Shown here piece after piece: positions 1 to 15,503 of a stretch of 40,911 nucleotides of DNA. The notes below the pieces were generated by a model that was not told the DNA's origin, did no database searches, and was given only the letters and a program-made list of their open reading frames with translations. Source of the DNA: an uncultured Candidatus Saccharibacteria bacterium (GTDB lineage Bacteria; Patescibacteriota; Minisyncoccia; 2-02-FULL-40-12; IGHO2-12-FULL-4); NCBI GenBank assembly GCA_964479745.1, contig CAYZNJ010000002.1, positions 1 to 40,911 of the forward strand, in the 5' to 3' direction. Positions within the stretch are counted from its first letter, which is position 1. Every line of letters begins with the position of its first letter. The position numbers and the translations under genes are program-made.

Positions 1-1468
1 TTGACGAGAGGGTAGTCGTGGTGGCTGGTAGTGTTGTTGTAGGAGACAAGGTCGTGGTAGTAGTGGACGGTATAGTTGTAGTCGTGGTTGGCGGGAGAGT
101 GGTGGTGGTACTAGATTCTTTATATACAGTAACAATTTTAGTTTTAACTTCTTTTCCGACTGGATTGGTAATTTTTAGAGAATAAGCGGTATCTGATTTG
201 AGTTTGTCAGTTTCAGCAGTACCGGTGGCGTTACCACTGCCATCTAATGCAATAACTTTGTTATCAAAATTAGAGTCAACGGGAGAAGATGTAATTACGG
301 CGGAAGTTGCGGCCGTAACTGACCAAATCAAATTGGTACTTTTGTTTTTTTGGACAGAGGTGTCGGTCGAAGTTAAACTGCCGGCCATGATATTATAAGC
401 AAGCGAAATGTCCTGGGAAGAATTATCCGCGTTAATATCAGTAATACGCAAACCACAGTTTGTTAACTTGCCGGCTATCGTCGGCATGTCTACACTAATA
501 CTGACCGGCTGAACGCCTCCTGCGGGAATAATGCCGGAAGATGGCGTACCATGACACCAGGGACCAGTGCCGGTTTGACTGATAGACCATTCAGATTGGG
601 CCTGGCCAGAATTGGTGATGGTCATATTCTGACCGGAAGGCGTTACAGGATCAGCAATGCCATAAAAAGTAAAAGCGGTTTGAGAAAGGGAAATATGCGA
701 GCCAAGAACTTGGAATTGGGCGTAATCATTGGCTGACCCATCTCCATTTGTAGCTGTAGCATCGTATGTGTATATGCCTGGCTTATGAAAAACTACGGTT
801 TGAACTTGAGAGCCAGCCGTTGAGGGTAGGTATGCGGGTGCAAGATATCCACCCGCCAACTGAACATCCAAATTTTGATATTCACATGAAGGAAAGTTTG
901 GTTGCGGAGTTGGCAGTTCGGGCCAGGAGTTCACGGTCCAGGAGTCAACATTATTGATTCCGCATCTGATTCTCCAATTAACCTGATGTTGAGTGCCGGC
1001 TAAAACGGTTACCGGCCTGCAAGTATTAGTGGGGTAAAACCCGGAGGAGTTTTTCGAAGTAAACTCAGGATGGCAGGTAAACGCTCCGTCCAAATCAATG
1101 TACATAGCGGGAGGGGTAGGGACATAAACCATATTGGAACTGTCCACTACATATATATCGGATTCTATAAATTTTCCAGAACCTGTCTCGGGTTCATATC
1201 TTGAAAATATAACTTGGTAGGTTGTACCGGCAGTAATCGTACATCCCCCTTCTTCAAAATCGTAGTCCGCAGTATAGAAGGCATCATATGTAATGCTGGT
1301 GGGCTCAGTACGGTGCCATGTGATTGGGTAAGTATGTGGACGAGACACGCACCCTCCCCCCAAATATATCCAATACCCAGCCAAGGCCGGATTGGGAAAA
1401 ACCAAAAACAACAACGGCAATACTATCAAAAATGAAAAATGAAAGAATAGTACTCGCTTGGATGCCAT
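1..1468 (-). CDS. Secreted protein, N-terminus complete and C-terminus cut by the window edge; signal peptide plus C-terminal Thr-rich linker
   Basis: Absent from the ORF track because it has no stop in the window. Minus-strand ATG at 1468..1466 gives MASKRVLFFHFSFLIVLPLLFLVFPNPALA..., a signal-like N-terminus. I checked every minus-strand codon in this frame by hand (plus-strand triplets starting at 2,5,8...) and found no TTA/CTA/TCA down to position 2, so 489 codons are open. The last codons read ..KESSTTTTLPPTTTTTIPSTTTTTLSPTTTLPATTTTLSS. Confidence 0.8.
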   Translation of the reverse strand, partial: MASKRVLFFHFSFLIVLPLLFLVFPNPALAGYWIYLGGGCVSRPHTYPITWHRTEPTSITYDAFYTADYDFEEGGCTITAGTTYQVIFSRYEPETGSGKFIESDIYVVDSSNMVYVPTPPAMYIDLDGAFTCHPEFTSKNSSGFYPTNTCRPVTVLAGTQHQVNWRIRCGINNVDSWTVNSWPELPTPQPNFPSCEYQNLDVQLAGGYLAPAYLPSTAGSQVQTVVFHKPGIYTYDATATNGDGSANDYAQFQVLGSHISLSQTAFTFYGIADPVTPSGQNMTITNSGQAQSEWSISQTGTGPWCHGTPSSGIIPAGGVQPVSISVDMPTIAGKLTNCGLRITDINADNSSQDISLAYNIMAGSLTSTDTSVQKNKSTNLIWSVTAATSAVITSSPVDSNFDNKVIALDGSGNATGTAETDKLKSDTAYSLKITNPVGKEVKTKIVTVYKESSTTTTLPPTTTTTIPSTTTTTLSPTTTLPATTTTLSS

Positions 1469-1475
1469 AAAAATA

Positions 1476-1964
1476 TTAACGGGCAATGTCATATATCGCT
1501 AATCGCGGATAATAAGTAATAACTAAGACGCCCGCAACAACTGCTTTAGCCGGAAAAGAAAAAGATACACGTGAATAGTTCTTGACATAAGAAACCAGTT
1601 TAGAGGAACCTCTTGATGATGCCAGACTTTCCTCCTTCCAACCCATCGCGATCATGTTTTCGGCGGCTTTTTTCAAAAGCTGATCAGGAGACTGCTTGCT
1701 GGAGAAAACACGCACCAAAGCCCATCCGTCTTTTGCCGGCATAATTCCAGGTGGTAGCTCAGTTGCATTAGGATCAATCAAGGCTTCTCTCGGGAATGTT
1801 ACCATTTGTTCGTTGATAAATTGTTGCGGCAATGCAGCATCCCATAATGTGATCTTTTGACCTTTTTTGATGAGGTAAAGAGCAAAACCCAAGATAAACA
1901 CAGCACATACCAGAGCAACTACAAAAATCCTGAAAGACACTGGCAAATTTTTTATTGTTTCCAT
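1476..1964 (-). CDS. Hypothetical membrane-anchored protein (single N-terminal TM helix)
   Basis: 162-aa ORF with hydrophobic stretch FRIFVVALVCAVFILGFALYLI near the N-terminus. It ends 7 nt before the next minus-strand start. No recognisable motifs. Confidence 0.55.
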   Translation of the reverse strand: METIKNLPVSFRIFVVALVCAVFILGFALYLIKKGQKITLWDAALPQQFINEQMVTFPREALIDPNATELPPGIMPAKDGWALVRVFSSKQSPDQLLKKAAENMIAMGWKEESLASSRGSSKLVSYVKNYSRVSFSFPAKAVVAGVLVITYYPRLAIYDIAR

Positions 1965-2081
1965 TCCGTTTGACTAATATTTTTACTTATTTTAATTGCA
2001 ATATTTTAATTTTAGCACAAAAAACAACCCTCAAAAATAAGTTATAAACACAGCATTTAATCAATACAATATAGAATCCAG

Positions 2082-3395
2082 TTAGTGCAAGAAGGTTTTT
2101 GCGCTAGATTTTTTTGATAACAAAGAGGGTAGGTCGTTAATTGAAATTCTCTCTTGCTTTGTAGTATCCCGGTCTCGCACGGTAACTTTTTTATCTTCAA
2201 GAGAGTCAAAATCAAAGGTTATGCAAAAAGGCGTACCGATTTCATCTTGGCTGTAATAGCGCTTGCCGATATTTCCCCTGTCGTCCCAAGCCACGCGAAA
2301 ATCTTCTCTTAAATCATCAAAAACTTCTCTGGCTTTTTTAACCAGTTCCGGTTTATTGGCAACCAAGGGAAAAACTGCGACTTGATATGGCGCTAGTTTT
2401 GGATGCAATTTCAAAACAACTTTATCTTCGTCCTCGCAGTAAGCGTCCAAAAGGAAGAACAGGGCAGCCCTGTCAACTCCGCCTGAAGTTTCAATAACCC
2501 ACGGCGTGTACTCTGTGTTAGTTTCCGGATCTTTGTATTTCAAATTATGCCGGCTCAAGTCCCAATCGCCCCGATGATGTATGCCTTCAAATTCTTTCCA
2601 GCCGAAAGGCGAGTTATACTCTATGTCTTCCGCCATGCGAGCATAGTGGGCAAGTTCGTTATCGGCATGTTTGCGGAATCTTAAATTCTCCGGCCTAATG
2701 CCTAAACTTTTATACCAGTCTAATCTTTGATTTTTCCAATAGTCAAAAACTTTCTCCGCTTCTTTTTCATCGGGCTTAACAAAGTACTCCAATTCCATCT
2801 GTTCAAACTCCCGGCTGCGGAAAGTAAAGTTACCCGGCGTGATTTCATTGCGAAAGGCTTTGCCGATCTGGCCAATGCCAAAAGGAACTTTTACCCGGCT
2901 CGAAGAAACTACATTGGCAAAGTTTACGAAAACGCCTTGAGTAATTTCACCGCGCAAATAGGTTTTCTCTTTCGGCTCGGTAACGCCCAGATAGACTTCG
3001 GTCAAAAGATTAAAGGTTTTGGCTTCGGTCCACTCAACTTTTTCTTTATGCTCGCTTTCATGTTCTTTAAGTTTATCTTCCTGGTCTGCCCGGACTCTTT
3101 TGTGGCAGATTTTACATTCCACCAAAGGATCAACCAAACTTTTGGTGTGACCGGAAGCTTCCCAGACCTGCGGATTCATAATTATCGCGGCGTCCAGACC
3201 AACCACATCGTCTCTCCTGTAAACCATATCCCGCCACCACATTTTTTTGATATTATTTTTTAGTTCAACGCCCAACGGCCCGTAATCCCAAAAACCGGTT
3301 AAACCTCCGTAAATCTCTGATCCCGGAAAAATAAAACCCCGCCTTTTGCAAAGCGAAACAACTTTTTCCAGCAAATTGTCATTGTTTTTTGTCAT
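2082..3395 (-). CDS. glyQS: Glycine--tRNA ligase (class II, alpha2 type)
   Basis: 437 aa. The N-terminus RGFIFPGSEIYGGLTGFWDYGPLGVELKNNIKKMWW is the hallmark GlyRS opening. Class II core FRNEITPGNFTFRSREFEQMELEYF is present, as is the C-terminal anticodon-binding part QVAVFPL...GKRYYSQDEIGTPFCITFD. Confidence 0.95.
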   Translation of the reverse strand: MTKNNDNLLEKVVSLCKRRGFIFPGSEIYGGLTGFWDYGPLGVELKNNIKKMWWRDMVYRRDDVVGLDAAIIMNPQVWEASGHTKSLVDPLVECKICHKRVRADQEDKLKEHESEHKEKVEWTEAKTFNLLTEVYLGVTEPKEKTYLRGEITQGVFVNFANVVSSSRVKVPFGIGQIGKAFRNEITPGNFTFRSREFEQMELEYFVKPDEKEAEKVFDYWKNQRLDWYKSLGIRPENLRFRKHADNELAHYARMAEDIEYNSPFGWKEFEGIHHRGDWDLSRHNLKYKDPETNTEYTPWVIETSGGVDRAALFFLLDAYCEDEDKVVLKLHPKLAPYQVAVFPLVANKPELVKKAREVFDDLREDFRVAWDDRGNIGKRYYSQDEIGTPFCITFDFDSLEDKKVTVRDRDTTKQERISINDLPSLLSKKSSAKTFLH

Positions 3396-3413
3396 GACAT
3401 TTCAAAAAGCGCA

Positions 3414-3561
3414 GCAGATACAGCCCTTGAGGTCACTGTGAGCTCGCGGTTGGCTAGGTTGGAAGGAGTATAATGTTTCTTTAACTCCTTCCGCAACCCG
3501 AGCGAACAGTGAGTGAGCCTGCCGCTGGAGCAGGCGAAAGTACCGAAAGGGCTGTATCTGC
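3414..3561 (+). repeat. Structured intergenic element, copy A of a 3-member family (short version)
   Basis: 15-bp perfect closing stem GCAGATACAGCCCTT (3414-3428) / AAGGGCTGTATCTGC (3547-3561). Internal hairpins are GGAAGGAGT-loop-ACTCCTTCC (3461-3492) and CCTGC-CGCTGGA-GCAGG (3518-3534). The same loop and architecture occur in copies B and C with different stems. Confidence 0.75.
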
Positions 3562-3577
3562 GAAGCTTGAATAATGA

Positions 3578-5353
3578 CTATTCAACCACACTCCCCTGCC
3601 CGGGGAAATCAACCAAATCGTCAGTGGTAATATCTTTAACCTTAACCGAAATCGCCTGCTTGGTAAAGGTGTCTTCGCCATCCATAAAAGTGTCCTGCAT
3701 CAGCTTAATCGTCTGGCCGACATTGTTGCTTGAAGGCGTAAAAGAAATCTGGAACCATGCTTGATATTTAGGAAACTGGTTGCCGACTCCGGACGGCAAG
3801 GCTCCTAAGTCCCAAACAACCTCTCTTGAACCCGTCTTAAACGAAGGCGCAGGTAATTGACCACTGGCTCTAGCTTTGTTTTCCCAGTTTGTCCCCACCG
3901 GCAAAACACCCTTAACCCTAATTTTTGAAAACTCGCCGGAAGAGTTGCTGACCTCCCACAAAACAGTATAAAAAGTTTTTTTGTTAACTTTCGGGGGTAT
4001 GGGACCGGTATTACCAAAGGTCTCATCTTTGTAAAAAGCTGTCTGGCTTAAAACCGGCAGTGAGGCAATTTTGGTAACCAGTTCTGACTCGGCCGTCAAT
4101 TTTTCCAAATCAAAACCGGCGGGCACCGTTGCTGTTTCAGCCTTTGCGCTAACCTTAATTACAAAATCTTTTGCGCCCAGGCCGCTGCCCGCAAAATTGC
4201 TTTTTAGTTTGACTCTAAAGTTTACCGCGCCTTCTTGGCGCGCCGCTAACCTGTTTAAAAGAGGCGAGACAGAAGCGTTCCAAGTAACTGTTCTGGAAGA
4301 GCTTTCAAAAAATCCGTCGCTTAGCAAACTGGATAAGTCAAACATTGAACCATCTAGTTTAACTGAAACGGTTATGCCCAAAAGACTGACATCCGTGTTG
4401 TTGGCAAATTTAATTTCATAATTTAACTCATCTCCCGGCTGAGCGATGTAGTTACTTTTGCCGTTGACCGAAATTTTAGTTGATAACGGCGGAGTTGAAA
4501 TGACAGTGGTTGAAGAGGCTTTTTCATAGTCAATAAATATGCCGTCAACTTTTCTCTGCAAAACAACAGCGACCTGCTTGCTTTCTCTTTCGGAACCTCG
4601 CAAGGTTCCGAAAACAGAAATTCTTTTTCCTTCTCCTGATTTTATGCTCTTTATGTCCCAGATGTTTGGACTAACGGAAGGCAAAGGGTCGGTTCGAGTT
4701 TGGCTAAAACCGTCGGGATATGCAAATTTAAGTTTCAAGTCAGACAAGTCTTCCGGCGACTCGTTCCGGTAATCCAAAAGGTAAGCAACTTCTTGTCCGG
4801 AAACCGTGTTCGGCGGAGCAACCAAAGTCAAAGAAACCGCCAAAGAACTTATGTTAGTAGCCAAAGTGGCTTCTTTCTCAAAAGTTGACCGCACTTTTTC
4901 CGGAGAGTAAACCAGCAGAGAGCGGGCTTTTTTTATATCGCCCCGATCCCCCACCAGATAAGCGGAAAACTCAACTTTGTTACTTTGTCCCGAACCCAAA
5001 TCAGGCAGTTTGATGTTCTCTGTTAAAAATTGGCTGACTTGGCCGTCTTTTACTACGACCGACTCGGGTGGATAAAAAAAGGTTAACTTAAGGTCCCGAA
5101 GCATTTCTTTGTTGTTGTTTGAATACTCAACTTCGTAGCTAACTTTCTCGCCCGAGGAAGTTTCCACCGGCCCGTTAATTTTAAACTCCACACCGCCTTC
5201 GCTGAAAGAAGACCGGTAAAAGAAAAATAAAATCAAACCGCCGGCAATAAAAATCAGGGCTAAAACAAAAACCAAAACTAGCCATTTTTTACTTTTTCTG
5301 CCAGCCATTTTGGGTTGGGACTGGAAGTTAAGAGGAGTAATCTCAAAATCCAT
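3578..5353 (-). CDS. Large membrane-anchored or secreted protein with repeated beta-sandwich-like segments (hypothetical)
   Basis: 591-aa ORF with N-terminal TM WLVLVFVLALIFIAGGLILFFFY. It has recurring segments of similar style (..GEKVSYEVEYSNNN.., ..GQEVAYLLDYRNES.., ..GDELNYEIKFANNT..), which suggests tandem Ig/CARDB/DUF11-like repeats. The family assignment is not verified. Confidence 0.7.
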   Translation of the reverse strand: MDFEITPLNFQSQPKMAGRKSKKWLVLVFVLALIFIAGGLILFFFYRSSFSEGGVEFKINGPVETSSGEKVSYEVEYSNNNKEMLRDLKLTFFYPPESVVVKDGQVSQFLTENIKLPDLGSGQSNKVEFSAYLVGDRGDIKKARSLLVYSPEKVRSTFEKEATLATNISSLAVSLTLVAPPNTVSGQEVAYLLDYRNESPEDLSDLKLKFAYPDGFSQTRTDPLPSVSPNIWDIKSIKSGEGKRISVFGTLRGSERESKQVAVVLQRKVDGIFIDYEKASSTTVISTPPLSTKISVNGKSNYIAQPGDELNYEIKFANNTDVSLLGITVSVKLDGSMFDLSSLLSDGFFESSSRTVTWNASVSPLLNRLAARQEGAVNFRVKLKSNFAGSGLGAKDFVIKVSAKAETATVPAGFDLEKLTAESELVTKIASLPVLSQTAFYKDETFGNTGPIPPKVNKKTFYTVLWEVSNSSGEFSKIRVKGVLPVGTNWENKARASGQLPAPSFKTGSREVVWDLGALPSGVGNQFPKYQAWFQISFTPSSNNVGQTIKLMQDTFMDGEDTFTKQAISVKVKDITTDDLVDFPGQGSVVE

Positions 5354-5372
5354 ATTGTTGAGGTAGACGAAT

Positions 5373-5912
5373 CTATTTTACCACAGCTTCAATAAACTGT
5401 AACGAATAAAACCGGCGGGAACTCAAAGAAGCCAGAAAATCATTGACTTCCCTTTCTCCCAAACTTCCGGAATAGCCCAAAACTTTAACAAACTCTTTTT
5501 TCAGGTCAGCAAAGAAAACTTCTAGATTGCCGTTAAAAAACTGGCTCTTGTCAAGAGCGTTCAATTTTTTCAGCAAAAAATCCCAAAGCCCAGGGTCTTT
5601 ATCGTGGTCATAAACCAAGCTGTCAATCGCCTCCAAAATAAAGCTCGCCAAAGCATTTTTAGACAATGAAGACTTAATGCCGGAAAAAGTTTCAAGACTT
5701 TGGGCGCTGGTAATAATCGGATAATTTTTGCCGGCAACAAAAATAAAGTCAACCAAATTTAAAACGTCAAGATGGCCGGCTTGTTTTGAGGTATTTTTTT
5801 TAACGCTTTTGGCGATAGCAGTCAGTTTACCTAACTCCTTGGTATATAAGGTAACCAGCTGGTTATGCTCTCCGCTGTCAGTTTTTTTTATTACAATCCC
5901 TTGATATAGCAT
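5373..5912 (-). CDS. recO: DNA repair protein RecO (short form, no obvious Zn finger)
   Basis: 179 aa. The N-terminal pattern YQGIVIKKTDSGEHNQLVTLYTKELGKLTAIAKSVKKNTSKQAGHLD matches the RecO OB-fold consensus (G-I-V-L...GE...v.l.T...GK...iAKG.rk..Sk). The C-terminal part ends ..FVKVLGY, as in RecO. Confidence 0.65.
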   Translation of the reverse strand: MLYQGIVIKKTDSGEHNQLVTLYTKELGKLTAIAKSVKKNTSKQAGHLDVLNLVDFIFVAGKNYPIITSAQSLETFSGIKSSLSKNALASFILEAIDSLVYDHDKDPGLWDFLLKKLNALDKSQFFNGNLEVFFADLKKEFVKVLGYSGSLGEREVNDFLASLSSRRFYSLQFIEAVVK

Positions 5913-5938
5913 GGGGGAATAAATACGGATTAATCTTA

Positions 5939-6120
5939 GTTTAGTTATTTTCCGTCGAATATGGCCGAGCAGTGCAAATAAACAAAGGTTTTAGAAATCT
6001 CGGTCGGCAACAAAAATTAGGAGGGATGGTTTCGACCGGTCACCTAATTTTTGTCGACGAGATGAGAAAATCAAGTATTATTTGCCTGCGAGGTCCATCT
6101 CGTAAGGAAAGTAACTAGAC
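5939..6120. repeat. 182-nt nearly continuous imperfect hairpin element (element D)
   Basis: Nested arm pairs: GTTTAGTTATTTTCC (5939-5953) / GGAAAGTAACTAGAC (6106-6120); TGCAAATAA / TTATTTGC; AAATCTCGGTCGGCAACAAAAATTAGG (5995-6021) / CCTAATTTTTGTCGACGAGATGAG (6043-6066). The apex contains GGT-TTCG-ACC. Arm mismatches are mostly T/C, i.e. G-U pairs if the plus strand is the RNA. Confidence 0.7.
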
Positions 6121-6129
6121 TGAGATTTA

Positions 6130-9100
6130 TTATTTTTTGATCCCTAGCCAAATTTTCTTTTGCGGCGCCAGTTCAAACTCTTTTTGAATGTCAAAAACTT
6201 TATCGCCTTCCGCATGAGCCAAAGAAAAATCTTTCAGCAAGGCATTCTTTTTTATAAATTCTTCCCAACTCGCCACTGCATTTTTAAGCTCCCCGTCTTC
6301 AGTATGCCACTGGCAAAAAACTTTTTCGTTAAAGCGGTAACCTGCTTCTTTTCTCATATCCTGAACCTGCCGAAGCAACTCCCTGGCCCAGCCCTCTTGA
6401 AGCAGTTCTAAGGTCAACCTGTCATCAATAGTAATTTCTTCTTCCTGTTTCGGATCGTATTTTAAGTTTTTTACGTTCAGTTCGTCTTTAATCAATGTTT
6501 CAAGTTCTTCCGCCAATTTTTCGCTTCTCTTTACAACCGCGCTAGCCAAAGGCTGTCTGACTTTGATTTGTTTGTTTTTTCTGTAAGCCAAGCCGAGAGC
6601 GACAAATTTCCTGACTTCTTCCATGTCTTGGATAAGTTTATAATTTATAGTTTTTAGTTTATAGTCCTTTGAAGATGGGTAGTTGTGAAAATGAACGCTC
6701 TCGGTCACAGCCGACGCACCTTTGTGGAGGTCATGGTGAAGTTTTTCGGCAATAAAAGGCGTAAAAGGCGCAATAATTTTTGCAATTTCCAGCAACAAAA
6801 ACCTTAACAAAGCCAAAGATTCTTTAAGAGACTCTTCCGACTCCGGCCTTTGGAACTTAATTCTTGACCTTCTCAACCACCATTTGGAAAAATCCTCTGT
6901 GACAAAACTTTCAATTGCCCGCGTAGCGGTAGTCGGATCATATTCATCCATAGATTTGGCAACGACTTCGGTTGTTTGGTTCAAACGGCTAAAAATCCAC
7001 TGATCCAGCAGGCTTGCTGGTTTAGTTTTGTGGAAATTAACCGTAAAATTTTTGTTATCCAGATTATACAATTCAAAAAACCTGAATGAGTTCCATAAAA
7101 TCATAACAAAACCCCGCAAACGCAAAGCCACTTCATCTAAAGAGAAGAGTTTAGTCTCGCCCGGATTATTTACCGAGTAAAAGTACCAGCGCACCGCGTC
7201 AACGCCGAATTTATCCATCACCATCCAAGGATCAACCACATTGCCCTTGGACTTAGACATCTTTTGCCCTTTTTCGTCTAAAACATGGCTGTAAGAAAGC
7301 ACATTTTTGTAAGCCGGGCCTTCGCCAAGCAAAGTTGAGACAGCTAGCAAGGTGTAAAACCAGCCCCGGGTCTGGTCTATAGCTTCGGCAATAAAATCTG
7401 CCGGAAATGCCGACCCAATCTTATTTCTATTTTCAAACGGATAATGCCATTGGGCGTAAGGCATGGCGCCAGAATCAAACCAGACATCGGCCACTTCTTT
7501 AATTCTCTGCATCTTGCCCTTGCAACTGGGACAACTTAAAAACACTTCGTCAATATAAGGACGGTGCGGATTTGCCCGGCCGCTTTCATCCCAAGGCAAG
7601 TTTTTAAGCTCCGCTTTATAAAATTTGCCTTTTTGGGGATACAGGTCTCTTTGTTCGTTGTTAACCACCCTAAGTAATTTTTCATCCGGCCAGCCGAACA
7701 AACTGCCGCTAAGCACCGCCAGCGGATCGCCATGGCTGACAATCAAAATATTTTTGCCTTCATGCTTTTTGTCTGTCTCCAGCATGAAGTTAATCATCCT
7801 CTTTTGAACATCGCCCCAGCTTTCACCGTCGCCGAATTTGTAATCCAAACTGGTAACAGGTTTTGGATGCTGTGCCAAGCAAAAAGATTCGCTCCTGCCC
7901 TCGCAAATACTTCCATGGCTTATTTCGCGCAGTCTTTCGTCAAAGTAAATTTTTGCGCCGGTAGACTTACTCACGATTTCCGCCGTTTCTTTGGTCCTTA
8001 AGAATGGAGAGGAGTAAATAGCATCTACTCCGTCTTTTTTCAATTTCATCGCCTCCCGTTCAACTTCTTTTCTTCCTTCGTCAGCAAGAGGGTATTTGTC
8101 ATTTTCCAGCTTGGTGTTTATTATCTTGTCAGAGTTCTTGACGCTAAAGCCGTGGCGCATAAAAAAATAGTTGTTTTTCTTTCGCCAGCGGTGTTTCTCT
8201 AAGTCTTCAAAGGAACCGACAACCTGCTGATGGCCGTTGGCGCATTCCCAAATAGGCAAAGGGGTGCCCCAGTATCTCTCTCTTGAAATCGCCCAATCCT
8301 TTACTCCCCTCAACCACTCGCCAAATCTGCCCTCTTTTAAATGCTCCGGATACCAATTAACTTTCTGGTTGTTTTTTATAAGTTTCTTGTCCAGCTTTGA
8401 CATGCCGATAAACCACGAGTCAGTGGCATAGTACAAAAGAGGCGTTCCACACCGCCAGCAAAAAGGATAATCATGCTCATATTTTTCTTCTTTAAACAGC
8501 AACCCTTTTGACTTCAAATAGTCTAAGATCCTAGCTTCAGTTTCCGGGTCTTTAACAAGTCTGCCGGCTAGTTCTGAAACGTCTTGAGTAAATTTGCCAG
8601 TTTGGTCCACGGTGTGGTGGCGAGGCAATCCAATTTTCAAGCCTAGATTGTAGTCGTCCTCGCCGTACATCACCGCCGTATGCACCACGCCTGTACCGTC
8701 TTCCGTAGTCACAAAATCCGCCGGATAAATTTTGTAAGATTTTTCCGACTTTAATTTTGGTATCTCAAAAAGAGACTCGTATTCCAAGCCAATAAGGTCT
8801 TTGCCACTAACGCTATGAACCCGTTCCACCGTATGGCCCTCAAAAACTTTGTTAACTAGATCTTCTGCAACTATCAAAAGCTCTTTTATTCCGTCTACTC
8901 TCACGGCGGCATATTTTATTTTTTCCCCGACAGCCAAAGCTACATTGCCAGGCAAAGTCCAGGGGGTTGTCGTCCAAGATAAAATATAAAAATCTTGAAC
9001 CGGAGCGAGCACCTCTTTTGAAGCTGGTCGGCGACAAGTCCGACCCAAAAAAGAGGCGCTTGCGGAGGTTAATTTAAATTTTATAAATACGGAACCTTCT

Positions 9101-9693
9101 GTGACGCTTTTGTAACCTTGCGCCACTTCATGGCTGGACAAAGTCGTACCGCAACGAGTGCAAAACGGCACAACTTTGTGTCCTTTGAAAAGCATTTTTT
9201 TATCCCAAACTTTTTTCAAAATCCACCAGAGAGTTTCTATGTAATTTGGGTCGTAGGTGATATAAGGATTTTTAAGATCTAGCCAAAAACCAATGCGTTT
9301 AGTAAACCGCTCCCACTCTTCTTTGTACTTCCAGACGCTCTCTTTCGCCTGCTTGTTGAACTTAGCAATTCCGTATTCCTCAATTTCTTTTTTTGATTTT
9401 AGGCCGAGGGATTTTTCAACCTCAATTTCCACCGGCAAGCCATGGGTGTCCCAACCGGACTTTCTTTCAACATAAAAACCCCGCATTGTTTTATAGCGGC
9501 AGAACAGATCCTTAAAAACTCGGCCGATAAGATGGTGAATTGCCGGTTTAGCATTGGCCGTCGGCGGACCTTCAAAGAAAATAAAAGGTTTGGCTTTTTT
9601 CCGCCGTTCCAGACTTTTTTCAAAAACTTTATTCTTCTCCCAAAAGTCTAAAACTTCTTCTTCAATTTTTTTAAAATTAAATTCGTCTGGCAT
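6130..9693 (-). CDS. ileS: Isoleucine--tRNA ligase carrying a nested histidine-phosphatase-like domain
   Basis: 1187 aa. IleRS motifs: PPTANAKPAIHHLIG (HIGH region), WTTTPWTLPGN (CP1 editing), GTGVVHTA, WAISRERYWGTPLPIW, KMSKSKGN. About 205 extra residues (aa ~502-707) between PLPIWEC.. and ..HRPYIDEV carry RHGFSVKN, SSPFLRTKETA and ILIVSHGD. Confidence 0.95.
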   Translation of the reverse strand: MPDEFNFKKIEEEVLDFWEKNKVFEKSLERRKKAKPFIFFEGPPTANAKPAIHHLIGRVFKDLFCRYKTMRGFYVERKSGWDTHGLPVEIEVEKSLGLKSKKEIEEYGIAKFNKQAKESVWKYKEEWERFTKRIGFWLDLKNPYITYDPNYIETLWWILKKVWDKKMLFKGHKVVPFCTRCGTTLSSHEVAQGYKSVTEGSVFIKFKLTSASASFLGRTCRRPASKEVLAPVQDFYILSWTTTPWTLPGNVALAVGEKIKYAAVRVDGIKELLIVAEDLVNKVFEGHTVERVHSVSGKDLIGLEYESLFEIPKLKSEKSYKIYPADFVTTEDGTGVVHTAVMYGEDDYNLGLKIGLPRHHTVDQTGKFTQDVSELAGRLVKDPETEARILDYLKSKGLLFKEEKYEHDYPFCWRCGTPLLYYATDSWFIGMSKLDKKLIKNNQKVNWYPEHLKEGRFGEWLRGVKDWAISRERYWGTPLPIWECANGHQQVVGSFEDLEKHRWRKKNNYFFMRHGFSVKNSDKIINTKLENDKYPLADEGRKEVEREAMKLKKDGVDAIYSSPFLRTKETAEIVSKSTGAKIYFDERLREISHGSICEGRSESFCLAQHPKPVTSLDYKFGDGESWGDVQKRMINFMLETDKKHEGKNILIVSHGDPLAVLSGSLFGWPDEKLLRVVNNEQRDLYPQKGKFYKAELKNLPWDESGRANPHRPYIDEVFLSCPSCKGKMQRIKEVADVWFDSGAMPYAQWHYPFENRNKIGSAFPADFIAEAIDQTRGWFYTLLAVSTLLGEGPAYKNVLSYSHVLDEKGQKMSKSKGNVVDPWMVMDKFGVDAVRWYFYSVNNPGETKLFSLDEVALRLRGFVMILWNSFRFFELYNLDNKNFTVNFHKTKPASLLDQWIFSRLNQTTEVVAKSMDEYDPTTATRAIESFVTEDFSKWWLRRSRIKFQRPESEESLKESLALLRFLLLEIAKIIAPFTPFIAEKLHHDLHKGASAVTESVHFHNYPSSKDYKLKTINYKLIQDMEEVRKFVALGLAYRKNKQIKVRQPLASAVVKRSEKLAEELETLIKDELNVKNLKYDPKQEEEITIDDRLTLELLQEGWARELLRQVQDMRKEAGYRFNEKVFCQWHTEDGELKNAVASWEEFIKKNALLKDFSLAHAEGDKVFDIQKEFELAPQKKIWLGIKK
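7573..8190 (-). other. Histidine phosphatase (PGAM-like) superfamily domain inserted in-frame in ileS
   Basis: R513-H514-G515-x4-N520 is encoded at 8149-8157 (CGC CAC GGC on the minus strand). SSPFLRTKETA and LREISHGSICEG follow, and the second catalytic His is in IVSHGD (CAT at 7732-7734). There are no intein-like termini. Confidence 0.75.
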
Positions 9694-9727: not shown

Positions 9728-10147
9728 ATGAGGAAAAACTACGGTTTCTGGCTCTTAGTTATTGTTTTTTTAGTAAATATAACTTTCGGATTGGGACTTG
9801 ATTGGTACAAGAAGTTCTGGTTCTTTGATGTAATTCTGCATTTTTTGGGCGGCTTGGGCGTGTATATCGTTGCCCGGGAATATTTTTCTAAAGACTTCAG
9901 GGAAAATTCTTGGATAAGATATTCCTTGCTCTTGGTTGGCATTGTTATGTTTGTTGGAGTTCTTTGGGAGTTCACAGAGTACAACATTAATATCGTCTGG
10001 AGAGCAAGGCTTCAAAACATACAAGTAATAGGCGATTTAGACGACACCATGAAGGACCTTGCTATGGATATGCTTGGCGGCATTATCGGAGCAATTTCAC
10101 ATTTTTTCTGGCATAGAAAGTCCCAAAAGACTCAAACTGTTTCTTAA
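9728..10147 (+). CDS. Small integral membrane protein (about 4 TM), hypothetical
   Basis: 139-aa ORF with ATG start 34 nt from the divergent ileS start. Hydrophobic segments are FWLLVIVFLVNITFGLGL, VILHFLGGLGVYIVA, LLLVGIVMFVGVLW and MLGGIIGAISHFF. Its 3' end overlaps the convergent argS by 51 nt. Confidence 0.6.
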   Translation: MRKNYGFWLLVIVFLVNITFGLGLDWYKKFWFFDVILHFLGGLGVYIVAREYFSKDFRENSWIRYSLLLVGIVMFVGVLWEFTEYNINIVWRARLQNIQVIGDLDDTMKDLAMDMLGGIIGAISHFFWHRKSQKTQTVS

Positions 10148-11707
10148 CACGATAACCGAAGCATAAACCAGCGTCAATCTGGTTTTTTCTTTTTCTTTTT
10201 CAGCGCCGATAACTTTTTGGCTCTCATAAAAACGGTTAACCTTACCGGCTAGATCCAAAATATAAGTCGCCAAATGATGAATCTGATAGTTTTGGCCTAT
10301 TTCCAGCAAAATTTCCGGAAATTTGATCAACTCCTTAACCAACTCCGCTTCTTCTTTTTCCCATGTCGCCTTTTTGGCGATCTTTTTTTCTATTTTAATT
10401 TTCAGCTCTTTGGCTTTCCTCAATATACTTTGCATACGGACAAAAGCATACTGGATATAATAAACGGGGTTTTTGTTTGACTCTTCTTTGGCCAAGTCCA
10501 AATCAAATTCAACATGGCTGTCCATTGATTTAGCCAAAAAGAAAAATTTGACCACATCTGATGGCACTTCTTTAACAAGTTCATCCAAAGTTATAAACCG
10601 GCCGGCCCTTTTGGACATCCTCACTTGCTCCCCTTTTTCCACCAAAGTAACCAGCTGGTAAAGCAAAAAGTTAAACTTTTCTTCGGACAACTTCATGGCT
10701 CTTAGGCCAGATTTTATTCTTGCCACATCTGCGTGATGGTCGGTGCCCAAAATATATATCATCTTATCAAAGCCTCTTTTTAATTTATTTTTAGCGTAAG
10801 CGAAGTCCGATAACAGATAGGTGGTAAAGCCATTTGATTTTTTAATAACCACATCGCTGTCCAAACCGAAGTTCGAAGCCTTGAACCACAAAGCCCCGTC
10901 TTTTTCGTAAGAAAGATTGTTGACTTTCAGATAGTACAGAACATCATCAAGTTCGCCGTGATTTTCCAGCTCGTTTTCCGGAAACCAAACATCGTGTTTA
11001 ACTCCGAAGAGCGCGAGAGAGTCTTTGAGAGAAGCGGTAATTTTTTCAACGGCGTATTTTTGGGCCGATTTAATCAAACTCTCAAAATCATCCAAAGAGC
11101 CATGATAAACTCCTTCTTTTTTTAAGTCTTTGGCAATTTCTAAAATATATTCTCCTTGATACATTTCTTCCGGATAATCCGTTTGCCGTCCGTTCAGCTC
11201 TAAAAATCTCCGAGCAACAGATTCTCCAAGCAAGGCCACTTGCCGGCCGAGGTCGTTTAAAAAATATTCTTTGATAACTTTGTGGCCAAGAAAGTTAAGA
11301 AGTCTGGCCAAACTTTCGCCGTAAGCCGCAGAACGGCCGTTGCCCAGCGTCAGCGGCCCGGTGGGGTTGGCTGAAACAAATTCAAGATTTATTTTTTTGC
11401 CTTTGCCATTTTTCGCTGAACCGTACTTTTCTCCCTTTTTTAAAACTTCCTGCAGTTCCTCATTTAAAACTTCTTCGCTTAAGTGAAAGTTAATAAAACC
11501 TGGCTTAACCAGTTCAATTTTGGAAAAAAGCCGGCTGAATTTTTTATCTTTCTTCAAGTCCGACAAAATTTCCTCGCCTACATCCATGGGGCTTGCTTTT
11601 TTCTCCTTTGCCAAAACCAGAGGCAAATTGCTTGAATAATCGCCAAATCCAGCCGGCGCGAAAGACACCTCCCCGCCCAATTTCTTTTTTATTTCTTCTT
11701 TAATCAC
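10097..11707 (-). CDS. argS: Arginine--tRNA ligase
   Basis: 536 aa. Motifs: SANPTGPLTLGNGR (HIGH region, non-canonical), MSKRAGRFITLDEL (KMSKS-equivalent MSTR-like) and a DALR-type anticodon domain YYIQYAFVRMQSIL ending in ..M, as is usual for ArgRS. Confidence 0.93.
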   Translation of the reverse strand: MIKEEIKKKLGGEVSFAPAGFGDYSSNLPLVLAKEKKASPMDVGEEILSDLKKDKKFSRLFSKIELVKPGFINFHLSEEVLNEELQEVLKKGEKYGSAKNGKGKKINLEFVSANPTGPLTLGNGRSAAYGESLARLLNFLGHKVIKEYFLNDLGRQVALLGESVARRFLELNGRQTDYPEEMYQGEYILEIAKDLKKEGVYHGSLDDFESLIKSAQKYAVEKITASLKDSLALFGVKHDVWFPENELENHGELDDVLYYLKVNNLSYEKDGALWFKASNFGLDSDVVIKKSNGFTTYLLSDFAYAKNKLKRGFDKMIYILGTDHHADVARIKSGLRAMKLSEEKFNFLLYQLVTLVEKGEQVRMSKRAGRFITLDELVKEVPSDVVKFFFLAKSMDSHVEFDLDLAKEESNKNPVYYIQYAFVRMQSILRKAKELKIKIEKKIAKKATWEKEEAELVKELIKFPEILLEIGQNYQIHHLATYILDLAGKVNRFYESQKVIGAEKEKEKTRLTLVYASVIVLRNSLSLLGLSMPEKM

Positions 11708-13558: not shown

Positions 13559-14005
13559 ATGACATACGCGACTAATCCCAGAGCGCAATTTGATTACAAC
13601 ATTTTGGAAAAGCTGGAAGCCGGTTTAGTTTTGTCGGGACAAGAAGTAAAGTCAATCAAAAACGGCAAGGTTTCAATCCGAGGCGCTTTTGTAAAAATTT
13701 TAAATAACGAAGCATGGCTTATCAGCGCCGTAATTTCTCCTTACCAGCCCGGCAACACACCGCCGGATTACGACCCTCAACGCACCAGAAAACTTTTGCT
13801 GAAGAAAAAAGAGGTGAATTACCTCTTTGAAAAATCGCAGGAAGCGGGACTGGCTATCGTGCCGCTTAAGCTTTACGGAAAAAAGAATCTGGTTAAACTG
13901 GAAATCGGCCTCGCCCGCGGCAAAAAGAAATACGACAAGCGGGAAACAATCAAGAAACACGAAGAAGAAAAGAAAATTAGGCAAAAATTAAAAAACTACT
14001 TGTAA
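13559..14005 (+). CDS. smpB: SsrA-binding protein SmpB
   Basis: 148 aa. NPRAQFDYNILEKLEAGLVLSGQEVKSIK.GKVSIRGAFV, ..YDPQRTRKLLLKKKE.. and a basic C-terminal tail are typical of SmpB. The tmRNA gene lies about 1.1 kb downstream. Confidence 0.93.
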   Translation: MTYATNPRAQFDYNILEKLEAGLVLSGQEVKSIKNGKVSIRGAFVKILNNEAWLISAVISPYQPGNTPPDYDPQRTRKLLLKKKEVNYLFEKSQEAGLAIVPLKLYGKKNLVKLEIGLARGKKKYDKRETIKKHEEEKKIRQKLKNYL

Positions 14006-15072
14006 ATTTTAGCCAGCGCCGCAAAATTTTCTTTGAAGGGTTCGTTTTCTACCAAAGTCGGAATTTTGTTCAGAAGATACTTGAGAACTTCCACAAAAAT
14101 CTTTTCAGCTCTTTTTGCTCTGGCCCTTCCCTCTCCACCTTTTGCATCAAAAGGGCTTCTTCTTAAAGGAATATCAACAAGCAAAGCTCCCATAACTCTT
14201 TCAAATAAAAGCAGATTAAAGCCTATAAAAAACTGGTTCCTTAGTTCTTTCGGGCAAGTCCCATAAAACGCACCTCTCCATTCTTGAATATCTTCTACCA
14301 CGCCCTCTTTCTCACTGTCATGGACATACATCAGCATATTCCAAACAAAGTAAGCCGCTCCATAAAATTGGGGCAGAGGGACAATCTCGGAGCTTGGCAG
14401 ATAAAAGTTATCGCCTTGAACAACTATGTCGGTATTGCCAAAGTTTTTGAAAAACAACCCCATTTCTAAGTCAGCAATCTCCCCAAGGTCAGTTTCATAA
14501 AACACATACCTGAAAAAATCATCAGCAACAGTTCTTAAAGTTTCCAGTTTTTGTTTACTTGCTTTGCTTTTGCAAGATTTCCCCAACTCAACCCACTTTT
14601 TTAGCCTGTCTCTAAAAAAATCTTCAAAGTTAGCTTTGGATTCCGCTTGCTCTATGCGGGAGAAAACATCAACTGTGTTCCAATACAAGTTAGCAATATT
14701 AAACTTTTCAAGACCGTCAAAAAACGGAAAGTCTCTCAACAATCTTGTTCCATCAACTCTTTCTTTGGTAAACCAGCAACAATCCTCCTCTGTCTTTATC
14801 TCTAAAATACAGGGAAGAAGAATGTGGGGTTTTGGAGCCTTGCTCTGGGCAACTTTGTAACTGCCGTCTAGCAATAAGAAATCTGGATCAATAAAATCCT
14901 TCGGACCAGCAAAAAGAGTTACCGACCCACTTTTGGTAAACCCGTGAATAATTTTACACTTATAATCGTTGGGTCCGAGTTTAGGCATCCAGCCTTTTTG
15001 AGTTGGATCTTCCTTAAAACCAATCTCTTTTGCCACTCGTCTATAAAGTTTCTCCAGTTCTGATTTTTTCAT
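13996..15072 (-). CDS. Hypothetical protein (358 aa); weak resemblance to the kinase/APH-like fold, unverified
   Basis: Long ORF with ATG start. It overlaps the convergent smpB by 10 nt. The segment FFKNFGNTDIVVQGDNFYLP vaguely recalls the HxDxxxxN region of APH-type kinases, but the catalytic residues are not conserved. Confidence 0.55.
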   Translation of the reverse strand: MKKSELEKLYRRVAKEIGFKEDPTQKGWMPKLGPNDYKCKIIHGFTKSGSVTLFAGPKDFIDPDFLLLDGSYKVAQSKAPKPHILLPCILEIKTEEDCCWFTKERVDGTRLLRDFPFFDGLEKFNIANLYWNTVDVFSRIEQAESKANFEDFFRDRLKKWVELGKSCKSKASKQKLETLRTVADDFFRYVFYETDLGEIADLEMGLFFKNFGNTDIVVQGDNFYLPSSEIVPLPQFYGAAYFVWNMLMYVHDSEKEGVVEDIQEWRGAFYGTCPKELRNQFFIGFNLLLFERVMGALLVDIPLRRSPFDAKGGEGRARAKRAEKIFVEVLKYLLNKIPTLVENEPFKENFAALAKIYK

Positions 15073-15155: not shown

Positions 15156-15503
15156 GGGCTCGAAAGGCTTCGATAGAGATAAAGTTCATTTAGAGGCAAG
15201 GGAAGGATGGCTATCACCTTCTAAAACTTTAGCCAAAACAAGAAGTGCCAATCAAAATTACGCACTCGCTTACGCTTAATATAGCTTAGGCCGTTTTGCC
15301 CTCAATTCTCACTAGAGGGACAAGGCGTCATCAGTGAGATATATTGTCGGCCCTCGGCTTCGCGGACCGCCAAAGAAACTAACCGAAGCGATCGTTTGGT
15401 TATTTTGCCTGTTCTTACCCAAATGATTAAAAAAATGGGATAACCTTGTAGTCTCTGACTGGCTTAATTTCTAGACGGGATTTCAATATCCCCGAGTCCA
15501 CCA
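15156..15503 (+). ncRNA. ssrA: tmRNA (transfer-messenger RNA), 348 nt, CCA encoded
   Basis: 5' GGGCTCG pairs with 3' CGAGTCC, including the G3-U pair used as the Ala identity element, followed by A-CCA (ends at 15503). GGCTTCGA lies near the 5' end and a T-arm-like GGGAT-TTCAAT-ATCCC before the acceptor 3' strand. The internal tag reading frame is GCC AAT CAA AAT TAC GCA CTC GCT TAC GCT TAA (15247-15279), giving ANQNYALAYA. Confidence 0.9.

Follow-up and report, generated by a model that had tools for sequence, protein, structure and literature searches.

An isoleucyl-tRNA synthetase with a histidine phosphatase nested in its core

The 40,911-bp stretch of DNA analysed here (positions 1 to 40,911 of contig CAYZNJ010000002.1, assembly GCA_964479745.1, referred to as the window in the rest of the text) carries an isoleucyl-tRNA synthetase (IleRS) gene, ileS, whose product almost certainly contains a real and intact histidine-phosphatase domain, nested within the synthetase and shared by a whole clade. 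The original prediction, made from the nucleotide sequence, had proposed such a domain within some 205 residues that other IleRS sequences do not have, at positions 7573-8190 (aa 502-707). Pfam analysis confirmed its identity: His_Phos_1 (PF00300) matched aa 510-676 far beyond chance, with 112.1 bits against a cut-off of 21.7 (E = 3.6e-32). The extra length was confirmed by alignment with IleRS2 of Priestia megaterium (PDB 8C8W), which stops at residue 502 of the window protein (residue 478 of 8C8W) and restarts at residue 709 (residue 488). The window IleRS thus has aa 503-708 where P. megaterium IleRS2 has 9 residues, a net gain of about 197. The gene and the parts of its product are as follows.

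6130..9693, minus strand: ileS, complete (1187 amino acids (aa) plus stop), an open reading frame (ORF) with a TIGR00392 match; type-2 (eukaryote-like) IleRS with inserted phosphatase
8188..9693, minus strand: N-terminal part of IleRS, aa 1-502 (first half of the Rossmann fold, CP1 editing domain, CP2 and start of CP3), aligned with 8C8W residues 13-478
9523-9537, minus strand: HIGH-type motif HHLIG, aa 53-57, in the N-terminal part
8266..8304, minus strand: CP2-CP3 linker, aa 464-476, VKDWAISRERYWG, counterpart of yeast IleRS 453-465 as judged by sequence alone
7570..8187, minus strand: inserted segment, aa 503-708 (short linker, histidine-phosphatase domain and C-terminal linker, KNLPWDESGRAN), a gap in the 8C8W alignment
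7666..8166, minus strand: His_Phos_1 (PF00300) core, aa 510-676
8149..8157, minus strand: RHG motif (R513, H514, G515), with H514 the predicted phospho-accepting nucleophile; R513 and H514 invariant
7996..7998, minus strand: R566, second phosphate-binding arginine, in SSPFLRTKETA; invariant
7924..7926, minus strand: E590, predicted proton donor, in LREISHG; invariant among inserted copies
7732..7734, minus strand: H654, second catalytic histidine, in VSHGDP; invariant
6133..7569, minus strand: C-terminal part of IleRS, aa 709-1187 (remainder of CP3, anticodon-binding domain and DUF5915), aligned with 8C8W residues 488-878
7516-7533, minus strand: CPSC half of the zinc knuckle, aa 721-724, in the rest of CP3
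7468-7488, minus strand: DVWFDSG, in the C-terminal part
7249-7263, minus strand: KMSKS, aa 811-815, in the C-terminal part

The four motifs on which the original prediction had based a full catalytic signature lie where it placed them: RHGFSVKN at aa 513-520, SSPFLRTKETA at 561-571, LREISHGSICEG at 588-599 and ILIVSHGD at 649-656. Among the 120 best full-length homologues (52-100% identical), R513, H514, R566, E590 and H654 were unchanged in 120/120. The Asn of the RHGxxxxN motif did not hold up to the same extent, as N520 is conserved in just 50% of these proteins, while G515 and G594 are conserved in at least 90%, as is, within the clade, the GDP that follows H654. In a mixed alignment of inserted and free-standing copies (see below), R513, H514, R566 and H654 remained invariant, and the position of E590 is E or D in the free-standing ones. 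Mean identity among the 120 homologues is 46% for the insert and 61% for the rest of the protein; on these comparisons the insert diverges more than its host, yet is clearly constrained.

An AlphaFold2 model of the insert (predicted local distance difference test (pLDDT) 93.1, predicted template modelling (pTM) score 0.91) superposes on solved histidine phosphatases. Foldseek aligned it with PspA (4IJ6) and PhoE (1H2E) at a template modelling (TM) score of 0.71 and a root-mean-square deviation (rmsd) of 2.3 Å, with 25-30% identity. Its best PDB matches, which also include Rv2419c GpgP (4PZ9), the mycobacterial hydrolase 6S2Q and the riboflavin-pathway phosphatase 9MMH, span TM scores of 0.70-0.77 and rmsd values of about 2.3-5.6 Å; for 4IJ6, 1H2E, 6S2Q and 4PZ9 the probability was 1.00 and the TM scores were 0.71-0.77, with PspA, PhoE and GpgP at about 0.71-0.75. 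A score above the Pfam gathering threshold, the RHG motif, the ordered set of Arg, His and acidic residues and the alpha/beta fold place the insert in branch 1 of the superfamily. As modelled, it is a complete branch-1 histidine phosphatase of about 190 aa, of the short, cap-bearing PhoE/PspA type, and by analogy it would use the phospho-histidine mechanism.

The highest NCBIfam scores of the insert belong to generic families (dPGM_arch, PspA, CobC and GpmB), and it remains below the cut-offs of all characterised subfamilies: 96 against 225 for dPGM_arch, 70 against 350 for PspA, 64 against 163 for CobC and 32.5 against 74.5 for SixA. We therefore rejected PspA, CobC and SixA as identities, none of them reaching its equivalog cut-off. 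A mutase, with the moonlighting role in glycolysis that this would allow, is disfavoured by the short architecture and by the sub-threshold dPGM scores. The insert has about 190 aa, not the roughly 250 aa of dPGM proteins with their mutase-specific C-terminal tail; dPGM structures of that size aligned to it with long gaps (rmsd 4.5-8 Å), and its free-standing orthologues stop directly after the last strand.

The synthetase that surrounds the phosphatase is intact in its motifs and domains. The ORF scored 865 bits against a cut-off of 621 for the IleRS equivalog TIGR00392, and among solved structures it is most closely related to IleRS2 of P. megaterium (8C8W) and IleRS of Thermus thermophilus (1ILE). 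Pfam tRNA-synt_1 spans aa 14-507, Anticodon_1 aa 897-1050 and DUF5915 aa 1087-1171. The equivalog score, the class I motifs, the CP1 editing motifs (WTTTPWTLPGN and GTGVVH) and the anticodon-binding domain together identify a type-2 isoleucyl-tRNA synthetase. Since the HIGH-type motif, KMSKS, the editing motifs and the anticodon-binding domain are all intact, the protein probably still charges tRNA-Ile; no other IleRS gene was found in the window. In a full-length AlphaFold model (pLDDT 82.4, pTM 0.71) both parts are folded, the insert with pLDDT 85-93.

The insertion interrupts CP3

The phosphatase interrupts the CP3 subdomain, at a surface loop. CP3 comprises residues 473-534 in Candida albicans IleRS, and in T. 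thermophilus it carries a zinc motif (PMC7191050); in yeast IleRS it comprises residues 459-526, and the preceding CP2-3 linker (453-ARDWNVSRNRYWG-465) lines the pocket that receives reveromycin or the CCA end of the tRNA (PMC7955072). The insert starts 27 residues downstream of the corresponding linker of the window IleRS. It begins at R503 (WRKKNN...) and ends at ...ESGRAN-P, flanked by the short helix SFEDLEKH on one side and by PHRPYIDEV...CPSC on the other. IleRS proteins of Parcubacteria that lack the insert read ...ELEKLSGKKIKDLHRPYID... in this region, with only LSGKKIK at the insertion point; the phosphatase and its C-terminal linker of about 12 residues (KNLPWDESGRAN) thus stand in for some 7 residues. 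As had been proposed, the insert is in frame and is not an intein: the window IleRS has no Hint or intein match in Pfam, and the ends of the insert are not of the intein type.

The first half of the CP3 zinc knuckle (positions 8230-8247, minus strand, aa 483-488) reads E-C-A-N-G-H in the window IleRS and in its nearest relative, against a clade consensus of C-x-x-C. Zinc may be bound through His488 at this altered knuckle, or binding may have been lost.

The insert is widespread among Parcubacteria

All 120 of the top 120 full-length homologues carry PF00300, including those of Yanofskybacteria genomes from the GW2011 and RIFCSP assemblies. We scanned GTDB, with one genome per species, for the motif K[KNT][IF][LA]IVSHG; at least 599 stretches matched, at least 525 of which encode a relative. 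About 66 of the best 80 GTDB loci have the N-terminal part of IleRS, the phosphatase and the C-terminal part in a single ORF of roughly 1130-1260 aa, and an independent scan of metagenomes contributed roughly 38 further loci that are laid out in this way. The insert is thus common to many Parcubacteria lineages. Because it occupies the same site in the same in-frame architecture in more than 100 independent genomes and contigs, it is not a product of assembly, a concern that the original prediction had raised; it is ancient and, as had been anticipated, a permanent domain of the enzyme.

Record titles of the carriers name Yanofsky-, Azam-, Uhr-, Nealson-, Sungii-, Terry-, Morani- and Campbellbacteria, Spechtbacterales, Minisyncoccota and Paceibacterota. 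The names Saccharibacteria, Gammaproteobacteria, Binatia and Pacearchaeota, which appear in a few titles, are probably automatic mislabels or errors of binning or naming; the host of the window itself is a member of the Patescibacteria, Parcubacteria/Yanofskybacteria-like. The guanine-plus-cytosine (GC) content of the insert and its GC content at third codon positions (GC3) equal those of the flanks, and its codon usage differs slightly, as expected from its amino-acid composition. A recent horizontal acquisition of the insert is unsupported, as GC and GC3 match the flanks.

We also considered a naturally split ileS, suggested by fragments that join parts of IleRS to the phosphatase (P0010 and P0045, on contigs of 120-270 kb), and rejected it: these are long-read contigs on which ileS lies in three or four pieces as a result of frameshift errors. 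Such frameshifted long-read copies of the ileS-phosphatase gene, as in L008 and L009, give rise to spurious "phosphatase plus tRNA-ligase fragment" proteins in public databases. In a locus titled Pacearchaeota archaeon (L075), a second class I synthetase-like gene is located directly upstream of the IleRS-phosphatase gene (1305-3713 and 4426-8112).

Aminoacyl-tRNA synthetases are among the most conserved enzymes, and new catalytic domains in their cores are very rare. Here, hundreds of species from a major uncultivated bacterial radiation have kept an unrelated second hydrolase, its active site intact, inside the core of an essential synthetase. The original prediction knew of no phosphatase domain in the core of a class I synthetase; consistent with this, full-text literature searches found no paper on a phosphatase domain of IleRS and no description of a phosphatase in any aminoacyl-tRNA synthetase, and the word "phosphatase" is absent from a 2026 preprint that presents a domain-annotated database of 96,219 IleRS sequences. 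Sequences of these proteins, with precomputed Pfam labels, have been publicly available for a long time, and the name that PGAP gives them is just "class I tRNA ligase family protein". At the genomic level, this synthetase with an extra inserted catalytic domain is well documented here.

The phosphatase alternates with a free-standing gene upstream of ileS

A search of 1.84 billion cluster representatives with the insert as query revealed that its relatives come in two forms, the best 150 matches comprising 84 copies embedded in IleRS and 66 phosphatase-only proteins. The latter have about 190 aa, are 40-46% identical to the insert, and extend from M-K-L-K-N-x-Y-F-x-L-R-H-G to ...G-E-L-R-K-L-N. 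The insert is thus essentially the whole protein plus a linker. In the three cases that were looked up (P0016, P0041 and P0035; 3/3), the phosphatase gene sits between argS and an ileS that lacks the insert (~975 aa), and it abuts or overlaps the start of ileS. The wider synteny of these loci is rplT-rpmI-infC / smpB / argS / phosphatase / ileS / recO, and the free-standing arrangement accounts for 10-12 of the best 80 GTDB loci. recO lies downstream of ileS in many related loci. The genes on either side of ileS in the window are:

10097..11707, minus strand: argS, directly upstream of ileS, with Pfam ArgRS domains
5373..5912, minus strand: recO, downstream of ileS, with Pfam RecO_N and RecO_C

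With smpB, infC and rplT nearby, the window has argS, ileS and recO in the order of the free-standing loci. The phosphatase gene is obligately linked to ileS, as an insert or as an abutting neighbour, and its presence as a separate gene between argS and ileS in sister lineages makes the insert a covalent version of an operon partner of IleRS. The clade-wide occurrence of the insert, its alternation with a free-standing gene directly upstream of ileS and a fold of the short phosphatase type rather than of a mutase all go beyond the original prediction.

The inserted and free-standing states are interleaved, requiring 4-6 changes on a tree of the IleRS core and 2-8 on a tree of the phosphatase; these are crude neighbour-joining trees with 30 bootstraps, on which repeated events, transfer of ileS alleles and tree error are not separable. 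In the window, a small ORF coding for a DUF2238-like membrane protein (positions 9728-10147, plus strand) lies between ileS and argS, overlapping the 3' end of argS by about 50 nt, in the place held by the free-standing phosphatase gene of the relatives.

Rarer architectures in relatives

Several relatives carry the phosphatase in other arrangements, none of which occurs in the window. Some IleRS proteins have two phosphatase domains. In P0268 the second copy forms a tandem with the first at CP3, in P0252 it follows the WHYPF loop, and in P0262, P0263, P0270 and P0336 it occupies the junction that leads into the anticodon-binding domain. By a simple pattern search, all extra copies retain RH[G/A] and most show the second-Arg and second-His motifs. 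Judging from their motifs (HGG[VM][IL], LRERxxG), the second copies seem to belong to another subtype than the CP3 copy (H[GA]DP[LM]). These two-phosphatase proteins reach 1468 aa.

One further IleRS (P0337) combines the phosphatase with a MutT-like NUDIX domain near the start of CP1. This is the region of a poorly conserved loop of the window IleRS, aa 207-236 (positions 9026-9075, minus strand; SASASFLGRTCRRPASKEVLAPVQ), whose pLDDT drops below 50 at aa 223-231. The GNAT domain of the IleRS family NF040702 (see below) may, from its alignment offset, also lie near this loop, and the start of CP1 may be a second insertion hot spot in IleRS.

Outside IleRS, two cases were found in which an N-terminal fragment of ValRS is followed by phosphatase domains, one domain in P0329 (L090:199-3048) and four in P0274 (L091:366-3851), both on contigs with 2-3x coverage. 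The phosphatase of L090 is followed by a TAA stop, and the C-terminal part of ValRS resumes in the same frame from an ATG 21 nt further on; either ValRS is truly in two pieces there, or the contig, of 3x coverage, contains an error. The metagenome scan described above, which was seeded with the ValRS-phosphatase junction, returned no further ValRS cases, just more copies embedded in IleRS, and we regard the ValRS case as anecdotal. An ArgRS with a C-terminal phosphatase, joined after ...PEHM, is represented by a single cluster (P0273) and is either a read-through fusion, matching the argS-phosphatase gene order, or a sequencing error. Finally, a small clade of seven clusters (P0300 and P0386-P0391; GTDB representative L086:1958-3292, plus strand) has the phosphatase fused to TsaC/Sua5 (threonylcarbamoyl-AMP synthase). 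Most TsaC proteins of Parcubacteria carry an MGMT-type DNA-binding domain (PF01035) instead, and a few carry a 2H phosphoesterase, MscL or ceramidase domain; domain fusions are thus promiscuous in Parcubacteria.

Relation to known systems

Among solved structures, the best sequence matches of the insert (E ~1e-12) are PhoE/YhfR of Geobacillus stearothermophilus (1H2E, 1EBB) and PspA of Hydrogenobacter thermophilus (4IJ5/4IJ6), which share with it a length of about 200 aa, a cap and the R-H-R-E-H catalytic set. Unlike the insert, both are free-standing and soluble; the insert lies inside another enzyme and has GESW and SHGDPLW motifs of its own. PspA is a metal-independent phosphoserine phosphatase, from whose equivalog cut-off the insert stays far away (70 against 350). 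On the synthetase side, P. megaterium IleRS2 (8C8U-8C8W) and T. thermophilus IleRS (1ILE) are collinear with the window IleRS on both sides of the insert (811 bits). Type-2 IleRS, the mupirocin-resistant type, has the same order of CP1, CP2, CP3, anticodon-binding domain and DUF5915, but about 9 residues at the insertion point in place of some 206, and a C-x-x-C knuckle in place of C-A-N-G-H.

The textbook example of a catalytic domain nested in a synthetase core is the CP1 editing domain. Like the phosphatase, CP1 of IleRS, ValRS and LeuRS places a second hydrolytic site within the catalytic core, after which the chain returns to the Rossmann fold. It differs in being universal and ancient, in its fold and in hydrolysing aminoacyl esters, whereas the phosphatase, inserted in CP3, is a clade-restricted member of a phosphoryl-transfer superfamily. 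That IleRS can house an unrelated enzyme domain has a curated precedent in NCBIfam NF040702 (IleRS with an N-acetyltransferase domain). There, the domain is a GNAT and is inserted, judging from the offset of the model alignment, in the N-terminal third; the window IleRS is not a member (332 bits against a cut-off of 1999).

Branch-1 domains have also been fused recurrently to enzymes of nucleic acids and nucleotides, as in mycobacterial MutT1 (NUDIX plus phosphatase) and RNase H/acid phosphatase of the Rv2228c type (NF005567). These are end-to-end fusions and not insertions, and the scores are far below their cut-offs. NF005567 is the top NCBIfam match of the free-standing phosphatase P0016 (91 bits). 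The phosphatase domain of MutT1 acts in protein dephosphorylation (PMC12407098).

A possible role in the charging cycle

The explanation that we favour, tentatively and with somewhat less than an even chance of being right as a whole, is that in this IleRS, a two-enzyme polypeptide, the phosphatase is held beside the synthetic site. H514 would act as the nucleophile, R513, R566 and H654 would hold the phosphate, and E590 would donate the proton. The domain would destroy a small phosphorylated by-product or inhibitor of adenylation, either pyrophosphate or a nucleotide (AMP or a compound derived from ApnA), and removal of this by-product would pull the formation of Ile-AMP forward. We lean slightly towards a phosphatase that is functionally tied to aminoacylation and is not a passenger. 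That it provides a third catalytic site for the charging cycle of IleRS, and occasionally of ValRS, whether by hydrolysing a by-product at its source or by removing a blocking phosphate from the CCA end, seems to us nearly as probable as not. As to the specific job, removal of pyrophosphate or of a nucleotide by-product of adenylation is a candidate that we still consider rather doubtful.

Several features of the family point in this direction. A small-molecule substrate is favoured because the fold is capped like that of small-molecule phosphatases and the SixA score is below its cut-off. Bulk turnover is favoured by the IleRS proteins with two phosphatase domains and the one ValRS fragment with four, the copies being catalytically intact. 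A by-product of adenylation is favoured because all recorded hosts (IleRS, ValRS, ArgRS and TsaC) make an adenylate and release pyrophosphate. In addition, one IleRS also carries a NUDIX domain, and histidine phosphatases are able to cleave phosphoanhydrides, as does the phosphatase domain of PPIP5K (PMC11836120).

Other observations weigh against removal of an adenylation by-product. With the insert below the cut-off of every characterised NCBIfam subfamily, its sequence indicates no substrate. To our knowledge, no histidine phosphatase serves as a dedicated pyrophosphatase, and it is not obvious why a freely diffusing product should need a tethered enzyme. The host range may also be less telling than it seems: the link with TsaC is weak, because most TsaC proteins of Parcubacteria are fused to the unrelated MGMT-type domain and fusions are promiscuous; the ArgRS fusion, a single cluster, could be a read-through from a neighbouring gene; and the ValRS examples are two low-coverage fragments, in one of which the phosphatase is followed by an in-frame TAA. 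As to inorganic pyrophosphatase, a tblastn search with an approximate E. coli Ppa query gave no match in about 1 Mb of loci, a negative that bears neither way on the presence of ppa in these genomes, as the loci all represent one repeated neighbourhood.

If the phosphatase does act in the charging cycle, IleRS would become the first aminoacyl-tRNA synthetase to have a phosphatase built in, and a new synthetase-associated activity would be defined. It would represent a step of translation housekeeping or repair that other bacteria carry out with separate enzymes or not at all, and would offer a handle on the upkeep of translation in ultra-small, metabolically poor cells.

Alternatively, the domain may be a housekeeping metabolic phosphatase of a reduced genome (for instance, a broad sugar-phosphate or phosphoserine phosphatase) that came from the argS-ileS cluster and lodged in a permissive surface loop. 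It would be active, with a chemistry unrelated to aminoacylation, and its linkage to ileS would provide co-expression only. This we consider unlikely, albeit a serious contender. The promiscuity of fusions in Parcubacteria (TsaC mostly with MGMT, in others with MscL, ceramidase or 2H) agrees with it, as do an IleRS that accepts NUDIX at another loop, the IleRS with GNAT listed by NCBIfam, the occurrence of the phosphatase at several sites and in several copy numbers, and the generic character of its best family scores; the interleaving of states, with 4-6 changes on crude trees, is what would be expected if the arrangement were nearly neutral. However, adjacency to ileS has been kept across lineages whose IleRS cores are just ~45-60% identical, with the free-standing gene abutting or overlapping ileS, and 84 of the 150 closest cluster representatives lie inside IleRS, the few other hosts being ValRS, ArgRS and TsaC. 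Moreover, an in-frame insertion into the core of an essential enzyme would be unlikely to last in hundreds of species without some benefit. Even a passenger would be instructive: it would show that the CP3 loop can accommodate an enzyme of 200 residues, which is relevant to synthetase engineering, would explain why the annotation pipeline falls back on "class I tRNA ligase family protein", and would serve as a natural experiment on how a stand-alone gene and an inserted domain are converted into each other.

A slightly less probable alternative, and in our view an unlikely one, is that the phosphatase heals tRNA ends: a phosphate that blocks the 2' or 3' position of A76, or what is left there of a pyrophosphate or cyclic phosphate, would be stripped off. 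A class I synthetase needs a free 2'-OH, and besides the synthetic and editing sites the flexible CCA end would have the phosphatase as a third site to visit. Damage and repair of this kind have precedents in the 3'-end pyrophosphorylation of tRNA by toxSAS toxins and in the repair of tRNA ends that the CCA-adding enzyme carries out with its HD domain. The synthetase hosts IleRS, ValRS and ArgRS are all class I and bind the CCA end; the main insertion falls in CP3, directly after the CP2-3 linker that in yeast lines the CCA pocket; the other insertion points, one in the loop that follows WHYPF and one at the junction leading into the anticodon-binding domain, would, by their sequence position, be on the tRNA-facing body; a terminal nucleotide phosphate is an ordinary phosphomonoester for the superfamily; and one TsaC carries a 2H cyclic phosphodiesterase, which likewise acts on RNA ends. 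On the other hand, the PhoE/PspA-like cap is of the small-molecule type, in contrast to the open SixA/Sts type with its macromolecular substrates, TsaC is not a tRNA-binding protein, and a positioned site is difficult to square with two to four domains in tandem. There is also no reason why tRNA-Ile alone should be repaired, and the mean isoelectric point of the inserted copies, near 7, is not obviously that of an RNA-binding domain.

HipA-family kinases phosphorylate and inactivate class I aminoacyl-tRNA synthetases, and the phosphatase might counter such a silencing kinase or otherwise be a regulatory protein phosphatase whose target is IleRS, another translation factor or a phospho-histidine carrier. 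Phospho-histidine proteins are indeed substrates of SixA and of the MutT1 C-terminal domain (PMC12407098, PMC12934123), and one lineage has a histidine kinase and two response regulators after ileS. We find this quite improbable, as the SixA score is 32.5 against a cut-off of 74.5, the fold retains its cap, the kinase neighbourhood is confined to that lineage and is absent from the window and most loci, and no kinase partner was identified. A chimeric assembly, a remnant of an intein or mobile element, or an inactive spacer is hardly credible: although inserted copies evolve faster (46% against 61% mean identity) and the first search returned fragmentary "split" genes, the latter are long-read frameshift errors, the catalytic residues are all invariant, the in-frame architecture recurs in more than 100 independent assemblies, Hint and intein signatures are absent, and the GC content matches the flanks.

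Other translation genes in the window

The window also codes for a ValRS (22767-24836, plus strand) of just 689 aa, which scores 881 bits against a cut-off of 704 for the valS equivalog. The match ends within the anticodon-binding domain, and the protein appears to lack the usual C-terminal coiled-coil extension of about 170 aa. A 358-aa ORF with no Pfam hit (13996-15072, minus strand) lies between smpB (13559-14005, plus strand) and the gene for transfer-messenger RNA (15156-15503, plus strand; Rfam, 123 bits), which are about 1.1 kb apart.

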